From a virus (lineage: Duplodnaviria > Caudoviricetes): a DNA stretch of 24,482 nucleotides. This document shows positions 8,095-24,482 of the stretch, piece by piece. The stretch spans positions 1 through 24,482 of IMG/VR virus record IMGVR_UViG_3300020042_004628; one strand, written 5' to 3'. Numbering within the stretch: position 1 is the stretch's first letter; the number at the start of each line of letters is the position of its first letter. Position numbers and translations under genes: made by a program. Below the pieces are notes generated by a model. That model was given only the letters and a program-made list of their open reading frames with translations. It had not been told where the DNA came from and ran no database searches.

Positions 8095-8385
8095 TTATTT
8101 TTTGTTTGAAGTAGCTTCTTTGATGAGGCGTTGTAGATACCAATCTGCTTTACGCAAATCTTCTACGCCGTTTTTAAATTTCCAACGCCAAACATATTTA
8201 ATAATGTTGCCTGTGCATACGGCTTCAATACCAAACAGTCCTTTGGTGGCTTCCTTGATAGCGTCGATACATTCAATCGCGCCTTGTGTATAGTGTGATG
8301 GGTGATTCACATTATCTTTTACTGCTTTTACAATCTTTACTGCTTTACTTTTATAACTATTAAGAATTTTTCTTAGTCGTGTCAT
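8095..8385 (-). CDS. DUF3310 / T7 gp1.7-like (SaV-like) protein, putative nucleotide kinase
   Basis: DNVNHPSHY..IECIDAI..GNIIKYVWR..KNGVEDLRKA.WYL signature. Confidence 0.88.
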   Translation of the reverse strand: MTRLRKILNSYKSKAVKIVKAVKDNVNHPSHYTQGAIECIDAIKEATKGLFGIEAVCTGNIIKYVWRWKFKNGVEDLRKADWYLQRLIKEATSNKK

Positions 8386-9819: not shown

Positions 9820-9983
9820 TGATATATCCTCCCTACTCCGTTTAAAATACTCTGTAAATCTTTTGCATCGAAATCAGTCTTGTTAAATGCAAACGGCGAT
9901 TTTCTACCATTGGCGTGTTTAACGTAGCCTGTCACTACTACTTGCTCGACTATAATTTGTTTCTCTTTTTTCTTGTCTGTCAT
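9816..9983 (-). CDS. Small hypothetical protein (55 aa, not in ORF track)
   Basis: MTDKKKEKQIIVEQVVVTGYVKHANGRKSPFAF...; ATGA overlap with next gene. Confidence 0.6.
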   Translation of the reverse strand: MTDKKKEKQIIVEQVVVTGYVKHANGRKSPFAFNKTDFDAKDLQSILNGVGRIYQ

Positions 9984-9986
9984 TTT

Positions 9987-10187
9987 TTATTCCCTATCGT
10001 ATTTATAGTATTTTAAATCGGCCATGTAATCGTCTATTAATTTGTAATACTTTAATGTTGCTGGATTTACACCCGCTTTTATTAATGTTTCATGCAAGAG
10101 CAAAGCCAATGTAGTCTTTTTTTGATGTTTACCAAACCACTTATTTTTTTTATGCCATGCTAATGCTTTCTTACTAGTAGTCACCAT
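9987..10187 (-). CDS. Small protein resembling a phage head-scaffold C-terminal domain
   Basis: Start probably ATG 10187 (GGAG 6 nt upstream); motif KALAW..KNKWFG....T.LAL.LHETLIKAGVNP....YY..ID..M. Confidence 0.6.
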   Translation of the reverse strand: MVTTSKKALAWHKKNKWFGKHQKKTTLALLLHETLIKAGVNPATLKYYKLIDDYMADLKYYKYDRE

Positions 10188-10422
10188 CGGGGTCTCCATA
10201 TTTTTGTGCTTGGTTTTCTAGTATATCACGATTGACTTCGTATTCAACCTCATCTAACACGCCCTCGATGTCACTTCTTGCTTGTCTAAAATGATCTTCT
10301 AGGTTAAGCGTATCTTCTGTGCCGTCTTCCCAACGGAAGCCTATCCACCATGATTTAATTCTCAACGGCTCTTGCGGTGAGGGCGGGTCTAAGTCGCGTT
10401 CTAATCTATCTATATCGCTCAT
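10174..10422 (-). CDS. Acidic hypothetical protein
   Basis: GAGGAG RBS, 82 aa. Confidence 0.65.
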   Translation of the reverse strand: MSDIDRLERDLDPPSPQEPLRIKSWWIGFRWEDGTEDTLNLEDHFRQARSDIEGVLDEVEYEVNRDILENQAQKYGDPDGDY

Positions 10423-10528
10423 TTATTTTCTCCTCTAATTGTTTTAATAATGCCTTGTTCTCGTCTTTTAATGTAGCAACCTCGTTTGTTGCCGTCACAT
10501 ATAACTCATACAATTCATCAAAGGTCAT
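10406..10528 (-). CDS. Small coiled-coil hypothetical protein (40 aa, not in ORF track)
   Basis: GAGGAGG RBS, ATGA overlap; MTFDELYELYVTATNEVATLKDENKALLKQLEEKINERYR. Confidence 0.55.
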   Translation of the reverse strand: MTFDELYELYVTATNEVATLKDENKALLKQLEEKINERYR

Positions 10529-10707
10529 CTTACTTCCTCCTCGATGTGATCTTTATAAAATTGTTCTACCACTTCATTAGGCATATTATTCCAACCTTTC
10601 CAACCATCTCTTATAATATACTCCATGTCTTGACGACCCGCGCCGTCTTGCAACCAATCGGTTTCATACTTAATACACGCTTCACGTTTTTCTTCGATCG
10701 TAATCAT
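10525..10707 (-). CDS. Hypothetical protein
   Basis: AGGAGG RBS, ATGA coupling. Confidence 0.65.
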   Translation of the reverse strand: MITIEEKREACIKYETDWLQDGAGRQDMEYIIRDGWKGWNNMPNEVVEQFYKDHIEEEVR

Positions 10708-10889
10708 TTGCTTGCCTCCTGTTCGTTTATATAACTTTCCATGTTAACGATTGTGACTTGTTCTTTACCCTCATCAAACAATTCACTTGCCATTCTGAAT
10801 GCCCCCTTGCGTGTTAAGTAGTAAGCATTAACTTCCATGTCTGCCATTTCTTCTTCGCAATACACGCTATATATTTTTTTATTACTCAT
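10704..10889 (-). CDS. Hypothetical protein
   Basis: GAGGAGG RBS, ATGA coupling. Confidence 0.65.
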   Translation of the reverse strand: MSNKKIYSVYCEEEMADMEVNAYYLTRKGAFRMASELFDEGKEQVTIVNMESYINEQEASK

Positions 10890-11164
10890 CGTCTTGCCTC
10901 CTCGTGCATAAACTTCATTTGTTTATCAATCTCGTCTAGTTCTTTTTCTTCTTCCTTACTTCTCATGCGTCTTTGCATTCGTGCGTTCCACTCATCATTA
11001 TCTTTTTTCCATTCGTCGTAATGATATTCTTTAAACCATTCATCAAAATAAGTCCCGTCCTCTAAGTAATACAATAATGAATCCCCGTTGTTAATGTGAA
11101 AGTCACTATTGGAATACATATACTCTATAAACTCTTTTTCATACTTTTCTTGTGGGTCAATCAT
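10886..11164 (-). CDS. Acidic hypothetical protein
   Basis: ORF 10886..11176; ATG at 11164 after GAGGA is the likelier start. Confidence 0.65.
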   Translation of the reverse strand: MIDPQEKYEKEFIEYMYSNSDFHINNGDSLLYYLEDGTYFDEWFKEYHYDEWKKDNDEWNARMQRRMRSKEEEKELDEIDKQMKFMHEEARR

Positions 11165-12379: not shown

Positions 12380-12424
12380 ATTATCTCAAACTTGTTTTTA
12401 CGTTGTCAAGTATTATTTTACAAT
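12380..12424 (-). promoter_or_regulatory. Strong sigma70-type early promoter (copy 2)
   Basis: TTGACA (12409-12404), 18 nt, TGa-GATAAT (12385-12380); 22 bp at 12403-12424 identical to 17259-17280. Confidence 0.75.
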
Positions 12425-12710: not shown

Positions 12711-13742
12711 TTAATAGTGATAAGGTGTGCGGTCGAGTGGTGCGTCGAGGTCGTCGTTCATGGCGTCCATTGGGTAGTATTGCGCCTCCTCCATGTATTG
12801 AATTTGATCGACTAGGTCATAGATCACCCCCGCTATATCGTCGGGCTTGGCACTCTTAACCCATTTTAATAATGACTTAAAATCGGTATATAGTAGATCA
12901 TCATAGGTTGGGAGATCGTGCGACATGGTGCGATTGTGTGCGCCATAAAATGAATATAGTGGACGCGGTTCGGGTTTTCTGACAACGGGGAGGGCTTGGC
13001 GTTTCCAATCATAAGCGAGGATTGTGTCCCTCATTCTTAACACGTGCGCCGTGTCTAAAGTTTCCGCGCTTGTGTGTTCTGACTGATAGCCTATCGAGAT
13101 ATTAAGACACTCGGGGACGAGGTGCGCATATTCGGCGGTGTCTGTATATATGCCCGTCGTGTCGAGTTGAAAGTCTTTTCCGAATAGCTTAATAAGTGCG
13201 TGACCTAGTTCATCAGAGGCGCAACGTCCGCCCCGTTGGTGTGTGATGATCGAGGTTGTCCCGCGTCTATCAAACGCGACCGCGTGTGTAAATTGTTTTA
13301 TATAGTCGGCATGTAGTTCTGCGATCTGTGATGAACCCCACCCCCCGCGTTCCTCTCCTCTGTGAAATATATATGTTCCCTCGACGTTGGCGTCGATCAT
13401 TTCAAGCATTAAGAAAACCCCCGCGCCGTCATCTGCGCCCAAACAATCGGAGGCTTGATCTACGAACGCCGTGCCGAAAGTATCTAGGAAAACTTCTTGC
13501 GTGATAAGTTCGGGCGTTGAGTTGTGCATGGTGTCAATGTGCGCACTCCATAAAATATTCGTCTTTGCTTTTTTATTGTGGTTGTCGTAAATATACGCGA
13601 GTGTTTCGCCGTCCTCGTTGGTTAGCGTTTTGAAGTCTTTAAAATAAGCGTTTATAAAATCTCTCTCGCCCTCGCTTTCATGTTGGCGTCGATAAGTAAG
13701 AATGTTTAAAAGTCTGTCGATTGGTTTGTTAATTGTTTTCAT
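12711..13742 (-). CDS. M28/M20-clan zinc-dependent peptidase/amidohydrolase
   Basis: SAHIDT, LGADDGAG, GEERG, AFDRRG and EH metal-ligand/catalytic motifs; GAGGA RBS. Confidence 0.88.
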   Translation of the reverse strand: MKTINKPIDRLLNILTYRRQHESEGERDFINAYFKDFKTLTNEDGETLAYIYDNHNKKAKTNILWSAHIDTMHNSTPELITQEVFLDTFGTAFVDQASDCLGADDGAGVFLMLEMIDANVEGTYIFHRGEERGGWGSSQIAELHADYIKQFTHAVAFDRRGTTSIITHQRGGRCASDELGHALIKLFGKDFQLDTTGIYTDTAEYAHLVPECLNISIGYQSEHTSAETLDTAHVLRMRDTILAYDWKRQALPVVRKPEPRPLYSFYGAHNRTMSHDLPTYDDLLYTDFKSLLKWVKSAKPDDIAGVIYDLVDQIQYMEEAQYYPMDAMNDDLDAPLDRTPYHY

Positions 13743-15555
13743 TTTGTTTAATGTCCTCTGTTGATGTTGTTGTATTTAGGGCGGTGTCGGAGTTGTCCTC
13801 GTCGTCCTCTGCCTCTGCGTCAATCTCTGCTTGTATTCTTTCCGCGTCGTCGGTGTGACATTTTGTCCCGTCGCTTAATTCGTGGACGTCGTCCGTGTGT
13901 GCTGATTCGTTGCCGTCGGCGTCCGCGTGGTCAATGCTTGTCGTATAGTCACAATAGATAAAACCGCGCAACGTCATAACGAGATCGTCTATGTGGTAAT
14001 AGTCGCCCGACTCCTCACAAGCATAAATATCATGCGCGGATAAATCGCAGTCCTCATGGAAAGCGTCATCATTAGCCCATATAACGTGGTCGTTGTGGAC
14101 GTAGTCTTGATTATTGTTATCGATCCAAGCATAAGAATAATTATTATCACAACAATGTCGGCATATATAGTCGCCGTGTGAAGTGCTTACCATGTCGTCG
14201 TTGTGTTCTATGTCCCCACAGGCGTCGCACTCGCTCATGTCCTCGTCCTCCACGTCGTCCGTCCAGCCGTTCGTCATGGTTAAACTTAAATCGCCGTGCG
14301 TGTTGATCTCGATATAAGTTCTGTTGTCAATGTCCACAAGTTCGCCCGATTGTGCCGAACCCTCCGAGCCGTTGCCGTCCACTCCCGCGTCGATATATGG
14401 TGCGACAAAAATGTCGTCCTCGTCCTCATGCTCGATCATCTGCAACAAACACCCGTCGAGGTTGCCGTGAGTGTATCCGTTTGCTTTTAAATATTGTTGG
14501 AGGTATTTCCCCTCCGTTGAGCCGTTGGCGTCGGGGTAGATTCTAACGTATTGTTTGAAGTCCTCCCGCACTATGCAACGCGCTAAAATTTCACCCGCTA
14601 GGCTTTGAATATATGCCAAGCGTATTACCGATTTGTCATGCGCATAAACTCGAACGGCGTCTGTGCCTTTCATACACGAACCCGCTAAACAATCGCGGTA
14701 TATGCGGACGAACCCCTCGGCGTCGGTGCTTTCAATGTATTTAACTTCCCACCCTGTGCGACTTGCGACTATCGCGTTGTATTTCTCGACGGCGTCCTTG
14801 ATCTCTGTTTCTGTTATGCCGATAAAATCCTTGAACGAGGTTAAATATTTACCCAATTTTGTCACGACCTCGCGCCCGTCCCTCAAGTGTTTTAATGTTG
14901 GATAGTGCGCTATCTGTAGAGGGTTCATTAAACTAACGTGGACGCGGTGCAACCAAAAAAGATAGCTTATGTTTTGGCTTTGCTCGTTGTTTATGCCGAT
15001 CGAGTTCCAAGGCATAAAAACCCACTCACCCGTGTTAAATTCTTGGTCGATCTGTTTAATGCGCGGTTCGAGTTTGTCCCGCACCTTGTCGAGTTGTTCA
15101 ATCCTCTTTATGTATTCACAAGCGCGGAGGGTGTAGTCGAGGTTTTTCCGTTCTTGTTCTACGTCGGGCGGGTTGCGCACGTCGCTGATAGTTTTCGCGA
15201 GTATTGTCCCGTTGATTTTATAATAGGCGTCCGTCCCGCCTAGTCGGTAATAATCCGAGCGCGAGTATTTAGTTTTGCGTAGTTGTTCGCGTTTCGCTCT
15301 TTCGTCTTTCTCGAGTTGATCGTTTAAGAATAGGCGGACGTTGTTTTGTCGGTGTTCGCTTTGTTGTTGGTGCATAAGGGCGTAGTCGTTGGCGTTCGCA
15401 TAGAATAAAGGCACTCGCGCCCAAAATGTATCGCCGTTTTGAAACCCTTTTGTTATGCCGTGATATTTTAAAAGGCTAGGGGTGCGAGGCGTGTTTATGT
15501 TTAAGTTAGTTTCTATTATGCGTTTGAAGTCCGTTTTAGTTTGTTCCAAGTTCAT
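13729..15555 (-). CDS. Large phage protein with central 'SCM...ARCIV...RIY...PYID' domain and acidic Cys/His zinc-ribbon C-terminus
   Basis: ORF 13729..15573; ATG at 15555 after GCGAGG is likelier; CDAC..ICRHCC..CEES motifs; function unknown. Confidence 0.75.
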   Translation of the reverse strand: MNLEQTKTDFKRIIETNLNINTPRTPSLLKYHGITKGFQNGDTFWARVPLFYANANDYALMHQQQSEHRQNNVRLFLNDQLEKDERAKREQLRKTKYSRSDYYRLGGTDAYYKINGTILAKTISDVRNPPDVEQERKNLDYTLRACEYIKRIEQLDKVRDKLEPRIKQIDQEFNTGEWVFMPWNSIGINNEQSQNISYLFWLHRVHVSLMNPLQIAHYPTLKHLRDGREVVTKLGKYLTSFKDFIGITETEIKDAVEKYNAIVASRTGWEVKYIESTDAEGFVRIYRDCLAGSCMKGTDAVRVYAHDKSVIRLAYIQSLAGEILARCIVREDFKQYVRIYPDANGSTEGKYLQQYLKANGYTHGNLDGCLLQMIEHEDEDDIFVAPYIDAGVDGNGSEGSAQSGELVDIDNRTYIEINTHGDLSLTMTNGWTDDVEDEDMSECDACGDIEHNDDMVSTSHGDYICRHCCDNNYSYAWIDNNNQDYVHNDHVIWANDDAFHEDCDLSAHDIYACEESGDYYHIDDLVMTLRGFIYCDYTTSIDHADADGNESAHTDDVHELSDGTKCHTDDAERIQAEIDAEAEDDEDNSDTALNTTTSTEDIKQNENN

Positions 15556-15925
15556 GTTGAACCTCGCTTTCATGTTTAAGTTGTTCTAGGTTTTTAGAAT
15601 TAACTGCGGGTTCTTGGTCGATCATGTTTTGATCGGTGTGACTAGGTTCTATTAAACTAAATAAATGTGCTTTTTTATGTTTCACGCCGTCGCGCAAGTT
15701 AGTTTCTAGGTTCTTTGTTGCGTGGTGCGCGTTTGCCATGTCCGCCTTTGTGGGTTGGTAGTAAAAAATAAATTTTACTTCGTGGCCGTTCATTGTGCCG
15801 TCGATAATGTTCACACTAGGCGCGGTTGGTTTCGTGACCTCGTAGGCTTTTTGTGGGCGGAGTTGGTTTCGTAAAATTTCTATTGCGTCGTGTCTTTGTT
15901 GCGCTTGGGTTGGTGCGGTTTTCAT
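15536..15925 (-). CDS. Hypothetical early protein
   Basis: 129 aa, ACGAAAGGCACAAAATG leader. Confidence 0.7.
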   Translation of the reverse strand: MKTAPTQAQQRHDAIEILRNQLRPQKAYEVTKPTAPSVNIIDGTMNGHEVKFIFYYQPTKADMANAHHATKNLETNLRDGVKHKKAHLFSLIEPSHTDQNMIDQEPAVNSKNLEQLKHESEVQHELGTN

Positions 15926-16749: not shown

Positions 16750-17189
16750 AAAACCCCCGTTTCTATTCTGTGCGCTTGGTTCTTCTCAAATTCTTCAAAG
16801 TCAATTAATGCTATGTAGTCGAGTTGCGCGAGGTCGTTTATATTTTCGTCTTTCCATGCCTCGAGTATCAATTTTCCGTAGTTATTGACAAGTGCCTGCG
16901 CTTTGATTGCGCTTTCTCTGATGTGTAAAATGTCTTGTATTTTGTATAAATCGGGGTTCTTTATTGCCTGTGCTATGTGTTGAACGACAAAAAGTCGGGC
17001 GCAGTCTGCCATAGGTGTTTCATATTTTCTATGTTCCCCGCCGAATGATTGTCTATGCTTTTTCTCGTCTTTGAGGTTCATTCCAAATAAATCCTCGCGG
17101 TATGCCGTCCATGTGATGTTGTTTAAAACTCTTAATTTTGAATATGCTTGGTTGATTGCGTTTATGATTTGTTTTTGTTTCATGTTCAT
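16746..17189 (-). CDS. Hypothetical protein, first gene of first operon
   Basis: ACGAAAGGCTACAAAATG leader, immediately downstream of promoter at 17236-17280. Confidence 0.7.
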   Translation of the reverse strand: MNMKQKQIINAINQAYSKLRVLNNITWTAYREDLFGMNLKDEKKHRQSFGGEHRKYETPMADCARLFVVQHIAQAIKNPDLYKIQDILHIRESAIKAQALVNNYGKLILEAWKDENINDLAQLDYIALIDFEEFEKNQAHRIETGVL

Positions 17190-17235
17190 TTTGTAGCCTT
17201 TCGTTTGTGGTTGATGTTTTGTATTGCTGTCTGTG

Positions 17236-17280
17236 ATTAGATCACGCGGTATTATTGATTGTCAAGTATTATTTTACAAT
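17236..17280 (-). promoter_or_regulatory. Strong sigma70-type early promoter (copy 1)
   Basis: TTGACA (17265-17260), 18 nt, TGa-TCTAAT (17241-17236); shares 22 bp with 12403-12424. Confidence 0.75.
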
Positions 17281-17294
17281 GTATCGTATTTTGT

Positions 17295-17800
17295 TTGAAC
17301 GAGGTTAAAACTAGGTAAAAAAGCCTTTATAATCAATAGGTTCATGCGGTTCATGTTTTGAAACTTTACCTTAAACAAGTGAACGAGGTTTTTATGAACG
17401 CGTGGGAGTTTGTAAGTGCTTGTTATATATATATATTTTATAGTTTATTATTAATATTAATAGATTGGTTCATGGGTTCATGCTCTGCCATAAGAGTGAG
17501 CGGGGTAGAAACTCCACCGCATTAACGAAGTGAACGATCTCTAAACTTCGTCAAACTCCTTTCCCTTTGTCCTATTATTTGGCATGAACTTCGTGAACTT
17601 CGTGAACTTCCGTTTAAAATCAAGGACTTACAACGTGAACGCCGTAAAATAAAACGTGAACTTCATGAACTTCTCAATATAATCAAGGACTTACGCGCGA
17701 ACCGCGCCTTTATGAACCAAGTGAACGAGGTGGACGAAGTTTAACGGGGTTATAACCAAGTGAACGAGGCGGACGCGGTGAACTTCGTGGACGCGGTAGG
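17295..17800. repeat. Non-coding array of ~9-bp (A/G)TGAAC repeats with AT-rich tract; candidate genome terminus/packaging region or origin
   Basis: 14 TGAAC on + and 4 on - by eye, many in 9-bp tandem (catgaactt-cgtgaactt-cgtgaactt); AT tract ~17423-17462. Confidence 0.85.
17618..17693 (+). promoter_or_regulatory. Two IHF consensus sites
   Basis: AATCAAGGACTTA at 17618-17630 and 17681-17693 matches WATCAANNNNTTR; 63 bp apart. Confidence 0.65.
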
Positions 17801-18017
17801 AACTAGGCGCGACGCGGTCGCATACTACGAACCCCACGCACCCCGTATGACCCCGTTTTACAAAGTAGGAGTCCCGTCTCGCCCTACATTGAGCCCAATA
17901 TGAACGATCAGAAAAAAAGTCAAATATAGAAACCCGCCCCCTATCAAATAAAAAGGGTCATCAAAAAATATATTTTGCAAAAATTCTGAAAAGTAAGGGT
18001 AAAGTATTATTTTACAG

Positions 18018-18347
18018 CTAGGCAGCGAAGGAAGAACCACAACCGCAAGTACTAGTTGCAGCGGGGTTTTTTATTTCAAAACCTGAAGTCATTAAAGAAG
18101 TGTTATAGCTTATAACAGACCCAGTTAAGTATTGCATGCTATGAGCATCTACAAGTAAAGACACTTCATCTTGGTCTACTACAAAGTCATCTTCGTTTTG
18201 AGTGTCATCAAAAGTAAAACCGTATTGAAATCCAGAACAACCACCACCGGATACATAGATGCGTAGTTTAAGTCCTATGACATTTTCTATGGCTAACAAA
18301 TCTTTTATTTTTACTATAGCAGAGCTTTCTAGGGTTATCGGATTCAA
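18018..18347 (-). CDS. erpA: A-type Fe-S cluster carrier (ErpA/IscA/HesB family)
   Basis: LRIYVSGGGCSGFQYGFTFD and TCGCGSSF with all three Cys; TTG start coupled to upstream stop. Confidence 0.9.
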   Translation of the reverse strand: MNPITLESSAIVKIKDLLAIENVIGLKLRIYVSGGGCSGFQYGFTFDDTQNEDDFVVDQDEVSLLVDAHSMQYLTGSVISYNTSLMTSGFEIKNPAATSTCGCGSSFAA

Positions 18348-18688
18348 ATTGCTTTAGGGTCAAAGTTGTATAACTCGGAGTAAACGTCTTTAATACGCAT
18401 GAATTTAGCCCCGTGTTGATCGAAGTCATCATCGCCTCGAACGTAGAGAGCTAAGTGAACCATTTCATGGAGGAGAGTTTGGAAAATAGTGATGAAGTGA
18501 CCACAAGAACCAGAACTTATTTCAATAGCCATGTCTACTTCGTCAAAACAACCATATATAGTAGGGTTCTTAATGACACGGAACTTAACTTTGTCTGACT
18601 TAGGCATAGGAAGAGTGTTAAACGGGGCCATTTGGCATGCCATGTTGTAGAGAATCTCTAAGTTCTTCTTAGTTAACGTAGTTTTCAT
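18344..18688 (-). CDS. SprT-like zinc metalloprotease
   Basis: TLLHEMVH (HExxH) followed by HGAKF third-ligand motif. Confidence 0.85.
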   Translation of the reverse strand: MKTTLTKKNLEILYNMACQMAPFNTLPMPKSDKVKFRVIKNPTIYGCFDEVDMAIEISSGSCGHFITIFQTLLHEMVHLALYVRGDDDFDQHGAKFMRIKDVYSELYNFDPKAI

Positions 18689-18784
18689 TTAGACATTCTA
18701 CCAAAAGACTATGCAAATAAGATGAAACTAGGTTAAAATAGTTAAATAAGCTGCAAATTCTACTCAAAGGTGTAACAGCGACAC

Positions 18785-19426
18785 ATGAATGACTTAAATG
18801 TCCAACAAAATCAAGGGGATAACCCCGAACACGACGTTTCTCACGTTATTATGATGCCCAACATCGATGAGGACGTTCCTTTGCCTAAAAATCCTAAAGA
18901 TGCTATGCCAGAACTAGGTATGGAAGAAGAGCTCCAAGTCAGAGTTGAGACTGTTAAGACCATAGCTGATCTAAAAGGTGAACCTATTCCTGAAGCTAAC
19001 CCAAAAGAACAACAAAAAGCAGTTGACTTTGTTAAACAAGTCATGACAGATCCAAACTTTAAACCCGAATATGGTAATTACTCAGATCCTACCATGGCAT
19101 TTTGTGCTGGTATGGTAGCTCAGACACAGGTACTACTCGCAAAAGAACTAGCAGACTACAAACTCTATGTAGTTAACAATCTTATCAAGGTGATAGAGTC
19201 AACAAAGAATCCTAAAGAAAAGACAACAGCATTAAGAGCGTTAGGCGAGGTGGATGGTGTAGATGCGTTCAAGAAGAAGACAGAAGTGACACACAAGATG
19301 GAGTCGATGGAGGAGGTTGAGAAAGAACTTCTTACTATGTTAAACGACTTCAAGCAAAAAGGACTCCTGAAGGAACCAGCACAGACGATAGATGCAGAAG
19401 TGATAGAAGATAAAACAGATGAGTGA
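18785..19426 (+). CDS. terS: Putative terminase small subunit
   Basis: Directly upstream of and overlapping TerL; helical, ALRALGEVDGVDAF motif; mainly positional. Confidence 0.6.
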   Translation: MNDLNVQQNQGDNPEHDVSHVIMMPNIDEDVPLPKNPKDAMPELGMEEELQVRVETVKTIADLKGEPIPEANPKEQQKAVDFVKQVMTDPNFKPEYGNYSDPTMAFCAGMVAQTQVLLAKELADYKLYVVNNLIKVIESTKNPKEKTTALRALGEVDGVDAFKKKTEVTHKMESMEEVEKELLTMLNDFKQKGLLKEPAQTIDAEVIEDKTDE

Positions 19427-20954
19427 GGAGAGGCTAACGCCTGAGAAAGCGGCGGAGTTAATGCAGTTAGTGCCACACATGCCGCCAGAGCAGAAGAGGA
19501 AAGCGTTAGCAGCATTAAGAGTCTTTAAAAAGAATTGGGTACAGGAACATGGCAAGGATAACTTCTTAGACTTTATTATGCACGTGTATCCAGGCTACAT
19601 GATAGGAGATCATCATAGACGGTTGGCTAAGATATTTGAAGAGATTGCGTCAGGCAAGAAGAAACGAGTTATTGTTAATATTGCTCCGCGGCACGGGAAG
19701 AGTGAACTTATCTCTTATCTTGCTCCTGCCTGGTTCCTTGGGAAATACCCTCATAAGAAAGTTATTATGGCGTCGCATACGGCTGACCTTGCTGTTAATT
19801 TTGGTCGTCGGGTTAGAAATTTGGTGGGTAGTGATGCTTACAAAGATATCTTCCCACAGGTAGAGTTGCAGGCTGACTCAAAGAGCGCATCACGTTGGGG
19901 GACAAATTATAATGGAGAGTACTTTGCTATTGGTGTTGGTGGTGCCCTCGCTGGTCGCGGGGCTGATCTGTTTATCATTGATGACCCACACTCTGAACAA
20001 GATGCCAAACTTGGACGACCTGACGTTTTTAAGCCTGCTTGGGAGTGGTTTCAGTCTGGCCCTTTACAGCGTCTTATGCCGGGGGGTGCGATTATTGTAG
20101 TCATGACTCGGTGGTCTAAGTTAGACTTGACGGGTGAAATTGTAAACCAGATGATTAAGAATGACGACGTTGATGACTGGGAGGTCGTAGAATTTCCAGC
20201 AATATTGACGGATAAAGATGGAGAAGAACGAAGTTTATGGCCTGAATTCTGGCCACTAGAAGAATTAAAAGCTAAGAAGGCAGCACTTGATATTAGGTAT
20301 TGGAACTCACAATACTTACAAAATCCAGTTTCAGAAGAAGGTGCTTTAATTAAAAGAGAGTGGTGGAATATATGGGAGAGTGATGATCCACCCGATTGTG
20401 AATTTACAATCATGACACTAGATGCCGCCCAAGAAGCTAATAACCGCGCGGATTACAACGCATTGACTACATGGGGCGTCTTTTTTAACGAAGAAACCAA
20501 TAACTATAATATAATACTATTAAATGCAATTAAAAAACGATTAGAGTTTCCCGAGCTTAAAGAGCTTTGTATACAAGAATATAAAGAGTGGGAGCCTGAC
20601 GCATTCATAGTAGAAAAGAAATCTAACGGCGCTGCACTCTACCAAGAGTTTAGACGGATGGGTATTCCTGTTGGTGAATTTACACCAGGTAAAGGACAAG
20701 ATAAAATCAGTCGTGTAAATGCAGTGTCAGATTTGTTTAGAAGTGGTATAGTGTGGGCCCCAGATCATAGATGGGCGCATGAAGTAATTGAAGAGTGTAA
20801 TGACTTTCCAAGTGGAGCAAATGACGACTTAGTTGACTCAACAACGTTAGCATTAATGAGGTTTAGACAAGGTGGGTTTATTAGATTACCCAGCGATGAA
20901 GCTGAAGACATACCAGGATTTAGAAGTTCTCGAAACAGATTATACGCAATATAA
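19419..20954 (+). CDS. terL: Terminase large subunit
   Basis: Walker A APRHGKSE, Walker B FIIDDP, coupling MTRW, RNase H-like TLDAA...DDLVDS. Confidence 0.95.
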   Translation: MSEERLTPEKAAELMQLVPHMPPEQKRKALAALRVFKKNWVQEHGKDNFLDFIMHVYPGYMIGDHHRRLAKIFEEIASGKKKRVIVNIAPRHGKSELISYLAPAWFLGKYPHKKVIMASHTADLAVNFGRRVRNLVGSDAYKDIFPQVELQADSKSASRWGTNYNGEYFAIGVGGALAGRGADLFIIDDPHSEQDAKLGRPDVFKPAWEWFQSGPLQRLMPGGAIIVVMTRWSKLDLTGEIVNQMIKNDDVDDWEVVEFPAILTDKDGEERSLWPEFWPLEELKAKKAALDIRYWNSQYLQNPVSEEGALIKREWWNIWESDDPPDCEFTIMTLDAAQEANNRADYNALTTWGVFFNEETNNYNIILLNAIKKRLEFPELKELCIQEYKEWEPDAFIVEKKSNGAALYQEFRRMGIPVGEFTPGKGQDKISRVNAVSDLFRSGIVWAPDHRWAHEVIEECNDFPSGANDDLVDSTTLALMRFRQGGFIRLPSDEAEDIPGFRSSRNRLYAI

Positions 20955-20963
20955 GGATAACAT

Positions 20964-23390
20964 ATGGCAGACAATGTAGATAAAAGTTTATCACAAGCAC
21001 CACAAGGAATAGAAGCAATGGCTATGGGTCAACCTGACTTAAGCGTTGAAATTGAAGATCCAGAAAGCGTAACGCTTGATGACGGTAGTATGGAAATTAC
21101 TATTGTGCCTGGTAAAGAAGACGATGATGAGTTTAATGATAACTTAGCAGAAGATATGGACGAAGGTCAGTTGACTGAGTTGTCAGGCGATTTAATGGGC
21201 GAATATGATGCCGATATTAATTCAAGAAAAGATTGGTTAACAACTTATGTAGACGGCTTAGAATTGCTGGGCTTAAAAGTAGAAGACAGAACAGAACCGT
21301 GGCCCGGCGCATGTAATGTATATCATCCCTTAATGACAGAAGCGCTGGTTAAGTTCCAAGCTGAAACTATGATGGAAACATTCCCCGCCGCAGGCCCAGT
21401 TAAAACCGTAATCATTGGCAAACAAACAAAAGAAAAAGAAGATGCTGCTGAACGTGTAAAAGATGATATGAATTATCAACTTACGGATATGATGCCTGAG
21501 TATAGACCTGAACATGAACGCATGTTGTGGGGACTAGGTTTATCTGGTAACTCATTCAAAAAAGTTTATTACGATCCTAACATTGAACGCCAAGTATCAA
21601 TGTATGTTCCTGCTGAAGATATTGTAGTTCCATACGGCGCATCTAATTTAGAAACAGCAGAGCGTGTCACACATGTCATGCGCAAAACAAAAAATGAATT
21701 GCATAAATTACAAGTTGCGGGTTTTTATCGAGATGTAGATTTAGGTGAGCCATACTTAGACATCGATGAAGCTGAAAAGAAAATTGCAGAGAAGTTAGGC
21801 TTCAATCCAACAGAAGATGACAGATATAAAATCCTTGAGATGCATGTTAATATTGATTTAGAAAATGGTGATAGCGAAGATGGCATTGCATTACCTTATG
21901 TAATAACGATTGAAAAAGGCACAGGCACTATCTTAGCAATTCGTCGTAATTGGAATCCAGATGATAAGTTAAAATCTAAACGCCAACACTTTGTTCACTA
22001 CGGTTACATACCAGGCTTTGGTTTCTATTGCTTCGGTTTAATTCATTTGATAGGTGCTTTCGCCAAATCAGGTACTATGATCTTACGTCAACTTGTTGAC
22101 GCGGGTACCCTATCAAACTTACCAGGTGGTTTAAAATCTCGTGGACTTAGAATTAAAGGAGACGACACTCCGATTGCTCCAGGTGAATTTAGAGATGTAG
22201 ATGTACCATCAGGCGCAATACGCGATAACATTTTACCGTTGCCTTACAAAGAACCAAGTCAAGTACTTAATCAATTAATGAATCAAATCATTGAAGAAGG
22301 TAGACGCTTTGCTTCAGCTGCAGATATGAAAGTATCTGACATGAGTGCTAACAGTCCAGTAGGTACTACACTAGCAATTCTTGAACGTACATTGAAAGTA
22401 ATGAGTGCGGTACAAGCGCGTATTTACTATGCAATGAAACAAGAGTTTAAATTACTTAAAGGCATCATTCGTGATTACACACCAGAAGAGTATTCTTATG
22501 ATCCTGAGGTAGGTGATAGAAGAGCTAAACAATCTGATTACGATAATGTAGATGTTATACCGGTTTCTGATCCAAACGCTGCAACCATGTCACAGAAAGT
22601 TGTTCAGTATCAAGCGGTTATGCAGATGGCGCAAGCTAATCCACAAATCTATGACCAAGTAGAACTTAATAAACAAATGCTAGAAGTACTTGGTGTTAAG
22701 AATATTAACAAGCTTATCCCGTCATCTGATGACCAAACACCAAAAGATCCTGTATCTGAAAACATGAATATTATTAATGGTAAACCTGTTAAAGCATTTA
22801 TTTATCAAGATCATCAAGCACATATTCAAGTACATATGACAGCAATGAAAGATCCTAAGATTATGCAAATGGTAGGACAAAATCCACAAGCAGGTGCAAT
22901 TCAAGCTGCAGCTATGGCGCACATTAATGAGCACGTAGCGTTTGAATATAGAAAACAACTTGAAGAACAATTAGGTGTACCACTACCTAAACCTGATGAA
23001 ACATTACCAGAAGATGTAGAGTTTGAATTATCTAAAGTTATGGCTGAAGCGGCTAAGAAACTTTCTGCTAAGTCTGCTTCTGAGGCTCAACAAGAACAAG
23101 CTCAACAACAGCAACAAGATCCAATTATCCAAATGCAACAACAAGAGTTACAACTTAAAGCACAAGACCTGCAAATCAAACAACAAAAAACACAAGCTGA
23201 TATTGCTGTAGAGCAAGCAAAACTTGAGTTAGATAAAATGCGTATTGAATCCCAAGAACGTATTGCCGGTGCTAAGTTAGGTGCAGATTCTGTAATGGCT
23301 AGTAAAGAATTAGAAGCTAAACAATTAATTGAGGGCACTAAAATAGGCATTCAAGCCGTACAAGGAAATAAACAACAACCAAAGGAGTAG
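20964..23390 (+). CDS. Portal protein (long podovirus-type, Q-rich C-terminal coil)
   Basis: 808 aa after TerL; PWPGAC.V.HP, FKKVYYD, GFYCFGLIHLIG, PVGTTLA motifs typical of aquatic podovirus portals. Confidence 0.85.
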   Translation: MADNVDKSLSQAPQGIEAMAMGQPDLSVEIEDPESVTLDDGSMEITIVPGKEDDDEFNDNLAEDMDEGQLTELSGDLMGEYDADINSRKDWLTTYVDGLELLGLKVEDRTEPWPGACNVYHPLMTEALVKFQAETMMETFPAAGPVKTVIIGKQTKEKEDAAERVKDDMNYQLTDMMPEYRPEHERMLWGLGLSGNSFKKVYYDPNIERQVSMYVPAEDIVVPYGASNLETAERVTHVMRKTKNELHKLQVAGFYRDVDLGEPYLDIDEAEKKIAEKLGFNPTEDDRYKILEMHVNIDLENGDSEDGIALPYVITIEKGTGTILAIRRNWNPDDKLKSKRQHFVHYGYIPGFGFYCFGLIHLIGAFAKSGTMILRQLVDAGTLSNLPGGLKSRGLRIKGDDTPIAPGEFRDVDVPSGAIRDNILPLPYKEPSQVLNQLMNQIIEEGRRFASAADMKVSDMSANSPVGTTLAILERTLKVMSAVQARIYYAMKQEFKLLKGIIRDYTPEEYSYDPEVGDRRAKQSDYDNVDVIPVSDPNAATMSQKVVQYQAVMQMAQANPQIYDQVELNKQMLEVLGVKNINKLIPSSDDQTPKDPVSENMNIINGKPVKAFIYQDHQAHIQVHMTAMKDPKIMQMVGQNPQAGAIQAAAMAHINEHVAFEYRKQLEEQLGVPLPKPDETLPEDVEFELSKVMAEAAKKLSAKSASEAQQEQAQQQQQDPIIQMQQQELQLKAQDLQIKQQKTQADIAVEQAKLELDKMRIESQERIAGAKLGADSVMASKELEAKQLIEGTKIGIQAVQGNKQQPKE

Positions 23391-23393
23391 TAA

Positions 23394-23588
23394 ATGATAG
23401 ATCCAACGCTTGAGCTATTAATCAGTAGAATAGCTGAAAGACGCAAAGAAGTATTAGGTTCAATTGCTGAAGGTTCTGCAAAAGATTATGCGCATTACCA
23501 ATCTGCTGTCGGATATATACGAGCTTGCGATACCATACAAGGTATTATTGCTGACATTATAAATACGATGGAGAACTCAGATGAGTAA
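23394..23588 (+). CDS. Conserved small head-module protein
   Basis: GSAKDYAHY...VG motif; AAGGAG RBS; between portal and GroES. Confidence 0.7.
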   Translation: MIDPTLELLISRIAERRKEVLGSIAEGSAKDYAHYQSAVGYIRACDTIQGIIADIINTMENSDE

Positions 23589-24027
23589 ACCAATTCTTAC
23601 AATGAATAAAAATTTAGTTGATGCTAGCGGTCGACCAATTATTATTCCATCGATAGGCGCAGTAGAAGCAGAAGACATACCGATTGAAGAACGGGGTTTA
23701 CAACTACCTGAACCTAAAGGATATAAAATACTTTGCGCAATTCCTGATGCTTCAGAAACATATAAAGGTGGTATTGTAAAAGCAGATTCAACTAGAACTA
23801 TAGAAGAACATTCAACTGTAGTTTTGTTTGTAGTTAAAGTAGGTGATTTAGCTTATAAAGATGAAGTTAGATTTCCTACAGGTCCTTGGTGTAAAGAAGG
23901 TGATTTTGTTTTAACGCGTGCATACGCAGGTACTAGATTTAAAATTCACGGAAGAGAATTCCGCATTATTAACGACGATACGGTTGAGGGGGTTGTTGCA
24001 GATCCTCGCGGCTACACTCGCGCATAA
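23581..24027 (+). CDS. groES: GroES-like co-chaperonin
   Basis: PKGYKIL...KGGIV...VVKVG...KEGDFV..RAYAGT...RIINDD.V.GVV. Confidence 0.85.
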   Translation: MSKPILTMNKNLVDASGRPIIIPSIGAVEAEDIPIEERGLQLPEPKGYKILCAIPDASETYKGGIVKADSTRTIEEHSTVVLFVVKVGDLAYKDEVRFPTGPWCKEGDFVLTRAYAGTRFKIHGREFRIINDDTVEGVVADPRGYTRA

Positions 24028-24037
24028 GGAGTAATAT

Positions 24038-24482
24038 ATGGCTGACGTAAAAGATGGAGATATTGTCTTTGAATATCCAGATGACGATGAAGTACTAGGT
24101 AGTAAGTTACCTGAAGAAAAAGAAAAAACCGAAGTTAAAATAGAAACAAAAGCAGACGATATTGATCTTGAAATTGAAGATGACATCCCCGCTGCTGATA
24201 GAGGTAAAGAACCTTTACCCCAAGAAAAAGTCGAAGAGCTAGAGAATGATACATTAGAAGATTATTCTGAACGTGTTAAACAACGTATGGCCCAGCTTAA
24301 AAAAGTTTGGCATGACGAAAGACGTGCTAAAGAATCTGCTGATCGTGAAAGACATGAAGCTATTAAGTTTGCTCAACAAATTTCCGAAGAAAATAAAAGG
24401 TTAAAAACAACTTTAACAAGCGGAGAAGAAACTTATATTCAAACGCTTAAAAATGCATTAGAACAGCGATTAGATTCAGCCA
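24038..24482 (+). CDS. Putative head scaffolding protein (5' part; runs off window)
   Basis: AAGGAG RBS; acidic N-terminus, EDYSERVKQRMAQLKKVWHDERRAKE coiled coil; open to edge. Confidence 0.65.
   Translation, partial: MADVKDGDIVFEYPDDDEVLGSKLPEEKEKTEVKIETKADDIDLEIEDDIPAADRGKEPLPQEKVEELENDTLEDYSERVKQRMAQLKKVWHDERRAKESADRERHEAIKFAQQISEENKRLKTTLTSGEETYIQTLKNALEQRLDSA

Follow-up and report, generated by a model that had tools for sequence, protein, structure and literature searches.

Detached copies of a single domain from a probable phage head scaffold appear, judging from their sequences, to constitute a real, selected and unnamed gene family that has also, unexpectedly, been captured by host chromosomes. 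One such copy lies in the window analysed here, a stretch of 24,482 nucleotides from an uncultured freshwater phage of the Caudoviricetes (IMG/VR record IMGVR_UViG_3300020042_004628, positions 1 to 24,482). The residues quoted in an earlier, sequence-only reading of this DNA were located within a 70-codon ORF on the minus strand, the mini-gene (Table 1). Its product, the mini-protein, is homologous to part of the protein encoded directly after GroES, referred to here as the parent; this homology is confirmed. The shared region is a three-helix domain, termed WFG.

Table 1. Positions in the window of the mini-gene, its signals and the genes discussed with it.
Feature	Position	Strand	Remarks
Mini-gene ORF (P0001)	9987..10199	-	70 aa from first ATG; closed by stops on both sides
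GGAG, likely ribosome-binding site	10194..10197	-	6 nt before Met5; seen in sequence
Core homologous to parent residues 214-262	10023..10169	-	
Accessory cassette	9975..10175	.	Skipped in empty-site contigs of close relatives
Sigma-70-type promoter	12380..12409	-	11/12 consensus with TG; heads the small-ORF run with the mini-gene
Stand-alone DUF3310 (SaV-like) gene	8095..8385	-	Same co-oriented run, 1.6 kb downstream of the mini-gene
Portal protein gene, head module	20964..23390	+	phrog_1216, E 4.9e-26
GroES co-chaperonin gene	23581..24027	+	Directly 5' of the parent
Parent gene, 5' part	24038..24482	+	phrog_28737; cut by contig end; 334 aa in contig L001

In PHROGs the mini-protein has a single matching family, phrog_28737, aligned over positions 219-273 of the 341 in the profile (E 2.8e-6); the truncated ORF at 24038 also belongs there, with a match at 31-152 (E 1.1e-7). 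Window positions 17177-24482 are 97.6% identical to contig L001, which extends this ORF to a full-length protein (P0004), an orthologue of HTVC027P gp56 (QGZ17837.1) that matches 14 phage records, including HTVC023P, CRP-901 and CRP-902. Homology of mini-protein and parent, which the sequence-only reading had proposed, is borne out by alignment to this completed product: residues 11-59 of the mini-protein pair without gaps with P0004 residues 214-262, 25 of 49 being identical (51%; pairwise E 8e-19). The local score is 147, whereas shuffled sequences averaged 29 and never exceeded 54 over 2000 trials. Identity to HTVC027P gp56 is 41%, and the DNA of mini-gene and parent is 62% identical (61/76/49% by codon position). 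Of 80 loci fetched by the parent N-terminus, 78 contain the WFG domain, the remaining two contigs ending too early, and 61 of 61 domain rows match phrog_28737. The copied part had been described as the C-terminal domain of the parent. More precisely, it is the penultimate WFG domain; the alignment stops at parent residue 262, and the extreme C-terminal helix-turn-helix (302-332) is missing from the mini-protein, as are the acidic N-terminus and the coiled coil of about 105 residues. The mini-gene is also not at the phrog_28737 position, lying about 14 kb from the GroES-capsid interval on the opposite strand.

The sequence-only reading had called the post-GroES product a putative scaffold. Its position directly 3' of GroES holds and the label is plausible; from this position and a P22-like architecture we infer that the parent is probably the head scaffold. 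In the group, genes follow one another in the order portal, GroES, parent, 149-aa gene, gene of about 200 aa and 303-aa capsid, the last being of the Phage_capsid_4 / Mu gpT type and having no scaffold domain of its own. The predicted model of P0004 is an elongated helical protein with a small basic C-terminal module, in which a disordered acidic N-terminus (-20) precedes helices at 78-183 and a confident three-helix domain at 213-265, followed by a loose linker and a basic helix-turn-helix at 302-332 (charge +4). P22 gp8 (PF09306) is described with the same layout, namely a disordered N-terminus, long helix, small helical domain, linker and helix-turn-helix (10.1101/2022.12.13.520362), although its 'hatchet head' has five helices and the WFG domain three. 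By analogy, the terminal helix-turn-helix of the parent likely binds coat. The 149-aa gene (L003:1509-1958) is conserved and, in relatives, overlaps the stop codon of the parent; neither Pfam nor NCBIfam has a match for it, and its product is a possible scaffold partner.

Searches of named families gave little more. No family match of the parent reaches the cut-off, neither parent nor mini-protein has a PF09306 sequence match, and a PDB fold search of the parent returned coiled-coil matches alone and no PDB scaffold. Judged by language-model features, the nearest named clusters are those bearing PF09306, the parent scoring 0.86 and the mini-protein 0.79, values that serve as leads only. The C-terminal helix-turn-helix of the Mu-like prophage I/Z protein (PF10123) weakly resembles the parent tail, which the mini-protein lacks, with the match below cut-off and found in 3 of 63 members; the capsid of the group likewise matches Mu-like gpT. 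A likeness to T7 gp9 found no support in hhalign of the WFG domain against the single T7 sequence (probability 0.1). A basic portal motif, considered as a scaffold-binding site, was dropped, a role that a discussion heading of PMC13386823 denies. Passages of the two genome papers do not name the parent gene as scaffold (10.1101/2019.12.14.876532; PMC10149686). Phages of the HTVC023P type rank with the most abundant of the ocean, and most of their structural genes lack names; a probable identity is now given to their scaffold.

Translation of the mini-gene likely starts at Met5 (position 10187), giving 66 aa, because GGAG lies 6 nt upstream of this codon, within the 3' end of the upstream ORF, and no such site precedes the first ATG. 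The relative P0003 has the same 66-aa length. The predicted model has helices at 10-18, 26-41 and 49-64 (mean pLDDT 82), so that the mini-protein is modelled as a stand-alone three-helix WFG domain with the fold that it has in the parent. Fold searches returned no clear match in the PDB (Foldseek, best E 5.3) or in a wide VIA search (best Z 5.6, rmsd 3.8 over 62 residues), and the top rows in BFVD were uncharacterised phage proteins of 276-335 aa with E above 0.1. Pfam, NCBIfam and PADLOC held no match for the mini-protein; pentatricopeptide matches, being sums of 4-9 bit repeats, were dismissed.

The mini-gene sits inside a run of co-oriented small ORFs headed by a consensus promoter, in agreement with the earlier description of a detached copy among early genes. 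The promoter is the best site, and the one used, from a scan that found 25 sites against 18 expected; it supports the suggestion that the mini-gene would be expressed early. Two RNA runs barely touched the region and left the mini-gene uncovered, and so are uninformative on expression. The gene is clearly optional. Empty sites were found in three studies, with joints from 9974 to 10176 in run X12 and from 9968 to 10178 in X1 and X2; joint depth was 113 (X1) and 118 (X2) with a short side of only 23 nt, the X12 side being 54 nt. In public freshwater runs X1, X2 and X4, identical contigs of 311-317 nt that carry the gene bridge both flanks, at depths of 21.5, 13.8 and 10.2, respectively; X18 holds part of the stretch and X8 has no cover. 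The mini-gene is probably a minority allele in the sampled populations, with the caveat that contig depth is no copy number. More skip joints occur in public contigs at window positions 10395-11075, for example 10716 to 10914 and 10417 to 10914 (X12), and mark the small-gene run as a hotspot of gene swapping and insertion.

Minority status would be expected if the mini-gene were a duplicated fragment of the scaffold gene that has no function or is decaying. This explanation is nonetheless very improbable for the mini-gene and is largely refuted at the level of the family. The reading frame is intact and has a ribosome-binding site, contigs of separate studies carry it without a sequence difference, and both the 62% DNA identity to the parent and its pattern over codon positions speak against it. 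In a quick tree (190 rows, 56 columns; 18 fragment-like or tandem rows excluded), the mini-gene falls in a 15-row clade of stand-alone copies only (SH-aLRT 99), and a careful tree (46 rows, 56 columns) gives the stand-alone clade support of 98/96. With these 46 rows, a tree uniting every detached copy in one clade is rejected (p-AU 0.023), as is a sister relationship of the mini-gene to the parent of its own phage (p-AU 0.033), tests of moderate weight as the rows were picked after the first tree and the alignment is short. Detached WFG domains therefore likely arose more than once, and the mini-gene is, on this phylogeny, no fresh duplicate of its own parent.

Estimates of selection also run counter to decay. 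For the mini-gene itself, dN/dS is 0.29 in one distant pair, the window against L285 (dS 1.18, near saturation), and its clade gives 0.29 and 0.47 for 2 usable of 6 pairs. Medians in other detached lineages are 0.43 (1 pair), 0.37 (20 of 21 pairs), 0.43 (10 of 10) and 0.06 (3 of 3), and 0.085 for copies in SAR11 genomes (36 usable of 136 pairs). Since dN/dS stays below 1 throughout, selection appears to keep the wider detached family.

Stand-alone versions, which the sequence-only reading had proposed to seek, occur in both phages and SAR11 chromosomes. A search of 1.84 billion cluster representatives gave 192 matches. Among the best 150 of these, five without the motif were dropped, and the 145 classified comprise 77 parents, 12 parent fragments, 10 fusions with DUF3310 and 46 others without coiled coil, about 5 of which are probable fragments. 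Other fusion partners are XRE-HTH (P0235), GIY-YIG (P0237) and Sel1/membrane (P0254). Pattern scans place the stand-alone phage copies among small non-structural genes, the two large scans covering 120 of about 490 and 120 of about 580 stretches and giving no frequencies; scanning viral contigs directly with the mini-protein found no further locus. A DNA pattern for charge-reversed copies gave 259 matches; these included 125 parents of full length, 68 sequences truncated at the 5' end, 14 chance matches and 8 without the upstream motif. Most short matches were acidic parent fragments and were excluded as stand-alone genes.

In 43 detached copies, a set that excludes 13 bacterial, tandem or fragment-like rows, residues A12, W15, N19, W21, F22, G23, T29, A32, H36, L39, Y51, Y52 and D56 (mini-protein numbering) persist at 86-100%. 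By helix periodicity these residues would lie on core faces, so that what is conserved would be the fold rather than a surface for binding. Lost from the detached copies are the parent-specific M28, G34, D49/E50, R60 and an FP..F arm. The Met before the invariant Thr tracks this arm, which is present in 74 of 86 rows with Met versus 9 of 59 without.

A more basic copy had also been claimed, and the core of the mini-protein does carry a net charge of +7 versus -2 for the homologous parent domain, a basicity that only 4 of the region's 33 small ORFs reach. On average the domain carries -1.6 in parents (n=77), +1.1 in detached copies (n=46) and +1.3 in DUF3310 fusions (n=10), a comparison whose p-value overstates the case as rows are related and the query is basic. 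The WFG fold may have been reused as a basic module that binds nucleic acid or another polyanion, its link to head assembly gone. Such a module would serve to cover or protect phage DNA or RNA, or else to assist the DUF3310 protein. The shift in charge, the loss of the parent-specific surface and the fusion partners, XRE-HTH, GIY-YIG and HTH-DUF3310 proteins with net charges of +5 to +30, favour this possibility. Strong basicity is, however, not required, since the domain ranges from -1 to +7 within the clade of the mini-gene, and P0123, the top match among the representatives, has -1. Secreted bacterial versions also exist, and drift to Lys in AT-rich genes can explain part of the shift. We regard this use as improbable on its own, yet nearly as likely as the reading that we rank first, in which the mini-protein deceives a host guard.

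According to that first-ranked reading, which is tentative and still rather doubtful, the mini-protein is a putative harmless look-alike of the scaffold that occupies a host guard against head assembly. Made early, it would intercept a host protein that senses head assembly, the presumed partner thus being a host sensor. The coiled coil, terminal helix-turn-helix and acidic patches would have been shed so that the decoy neither enters nor disrupts the procapsid of its own phage, and the change of Met to Lys before the invariant Thr, together with loss of the FP..F arm, might keep the lone domain soluble. The mini-gene is in any case unable to build heads. This reading is ranked first because of the accessory early position, the loss of all assembly-active parts, the fusions with a SaV-like domain and the occurrence of host copies next to nucleases. 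SaV, a member of DUF3310, is made early and confers sensitivity to AbiV (PMC8306868), and defence systems that sense capsid, portal and terminase are described in two studies (10.1101/2023.04.06.535777; 10.1101/2025.06.06.658234). Several points stand against a decoy. The parent-specific surface residues are exactly those lost, which weakens strict mimicry; a charge of +7 makes the copy a poor mimic of a domain at -2; and SAR11 copies with signal peptides (L354, L356, P0213) and the membrane/Sel1 protein P0254 are at odds with a cytoplasmic decoy. A literature search found no scaffold-sensing defence system.

Copies of the domain are also carried by bacteria. A search of 401 genomes of the SAR11 family gave matches in 14, of which 2 are whole phage head modules and 12 are short or signal-peptide forms; three of these 12 genomes are search seeds and two match weakly. 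The complete head modules of this phage group (L369, L371, L380) lie inside two SAR11-family assemblies and suggest infected cells or prophages. Some SAR11 copies adjoin dnaG and rpoD, or pilin-like genes. In a lineage of about 120 aa from SAR11 islands, a nuclease-type or DUF2779 gene lies directly downstream in 15 of 21 loci, a count made without a background control and including several near-copies that are not independent. The next gene encodes a TM0106 RecB-like nuclease-helicase in 6 loci, a GxxExxY nuclease in 4, a DUF2779 protein, which we take to be nuclease-like, in 5 and another product in 6, and the spacing to the nuclease-type or DUF2779 gene is 2-7 nt in all but one locus. Loci of this lineage include L350:9809-10171, L351:9731-10171, L353, L363, L259, L274, L301 and L306. 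The WFG gene and the downstream gene constitute a possible two-gene defence unit; PADLOC HMMs (2023 library) gave no match for two SAR11 copies, the parent or the mini-protein. A different form, seen at L354:9689-10150, L356 and L366 and in P0131 and P0213, has a signal-peptide-like start and a C-terminal WFG domain and is encoded just before pilin-like genes. By eye, the N-terminal half of these signal-peptide proteins resembles a second, degenerate WFG copy.

Rival capsids offer another potential target. The mini-protein could compete with scaffold for coat or portal, as CpmB and Rcm do though with no structure of its own to build, and spoil the heads of co-infecting related phages, and hosts would then keep captured WFG copies as anti-phage genes; we consider this unlikely. 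In P22, the helical domain before the terminal helix-turn-helix carries a second coat-binding site (10.1101/2022.12.13.520362), and P0004 has the same predicted layout as the P22 scaffold. The capsid (-13, in relative L003) and the portal (-45, in the window) are acidic, which could let a basic copy attach with higher affinity. The terminal helix-turn-helix is retained in some detached lineages, and purifying selection on the SAR11 copies is strong. The mini-protein itself, however, lacks that terminal element, the main coat-binding one in P22 and 80alpha, and the mini-gene is far from the late module. Capsids of the group are 62-84% identical (28 aligned), so self-poisoning would be hard to avoid. 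Of the two functions raised by the sequence-only reading, interference with competing capsids and a decoy for a host sensor, the sensor variant fits the context better, but the surface residues specific to the parent are the ones lost.

Comparison with known systems also sets the mini-gene apart. We know of no detached copy of the scaffold domain in P22. Relative to gp56 of HTVC027P and its phrog_28737 counterparts in HTVC023P- and CRP-901-type phages, the mini-protein has the same three-helix WFG domain at one fifth of the length, without the acidic N-terminus, coiled coil, FP..F arm or terminal helix-turn-helix; it is basic and accessory, and is encoded on the opposite strand among small non-structural genes. 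SaPI CpmB and Rcm, the nearest known kind, are likewise small helical proteins of scaffold-like sequence encoded apart from the scaffold, and CpmB shares a terminal element with its target scaffold (PMC5644958; PMC12409344). Both are satellite-borne, retain the terminal motif for binding coat and give rise to small capsids. The mini-gene is instead on the phage itself and has no terminal motif; it fails the defining features of CpmB and Rcm and is set apart from them. Gpi is another satellite inhibitor of assembly (10.1101/2024.04.22.590561). Passages of PMC12409349 and PMC11445458 hold nothing specific to detached scaffold domains, and no report of detached WFG copies was found in the literature outside subscription journals. 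Phage genes of about 100 aa that combine WFG with a terminal helix-turn-helix and have no coiled coil (L233, L251, L138, L149, L235, L271) are better candidates for CpmB-like competitors than the mini-gene. Three DUF3310 fusions (P0132, P0136, P0146) carry the scaffold terminal helix-turn-helix before or after WFG, and both elements appear from these sequences to be undergoing shuffling into non-structural genes.

Taken more broadly, WFG might be a head-protein-recognition module contested by both sides, with captured SAR11 copies serving as bait or sensor coupled to nucleases and copies repeatedly split off by phages serving as early decoys to mask or titrate the recognition, although we hold this to be a rather slim prospect. 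If true, one scaffold domain would have given a pair of defence and counter-defence in a very abundant aquatic phage group. The chance that the partner of the mini-protein lies outside all the readings considered is minor but appreciable. The evidence points to one scaffold domain with more than one detachment, which selection has maintained and which has been joined to other modules and captured by SAR11 chromosomes. As known scaffold mimics are satellite-borne, early copies on phages and copies in hosts would imply an unrecognised conflict over head assembly. It is testable, the proteins being small and soluble and HTVC027P with Pelagibacter HTCC1062, and CRP-901 with its Roseobacter host, being in culture. 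Besides portal and parent, the window itself encodes a polymerase, a helicase and a terminase. At 12711-15573, before the small-gene run, lie a gene for an M28-like peptidase (phrog_4191) and one of 614 aa whose tail is rich in Cys, His and Asp (phrog_6980), and a gene for Fe-S cluster biosynthesis (IscA/ErpA-like) occupies 18018-18347 on the minus strand beside an SprT-like gene.
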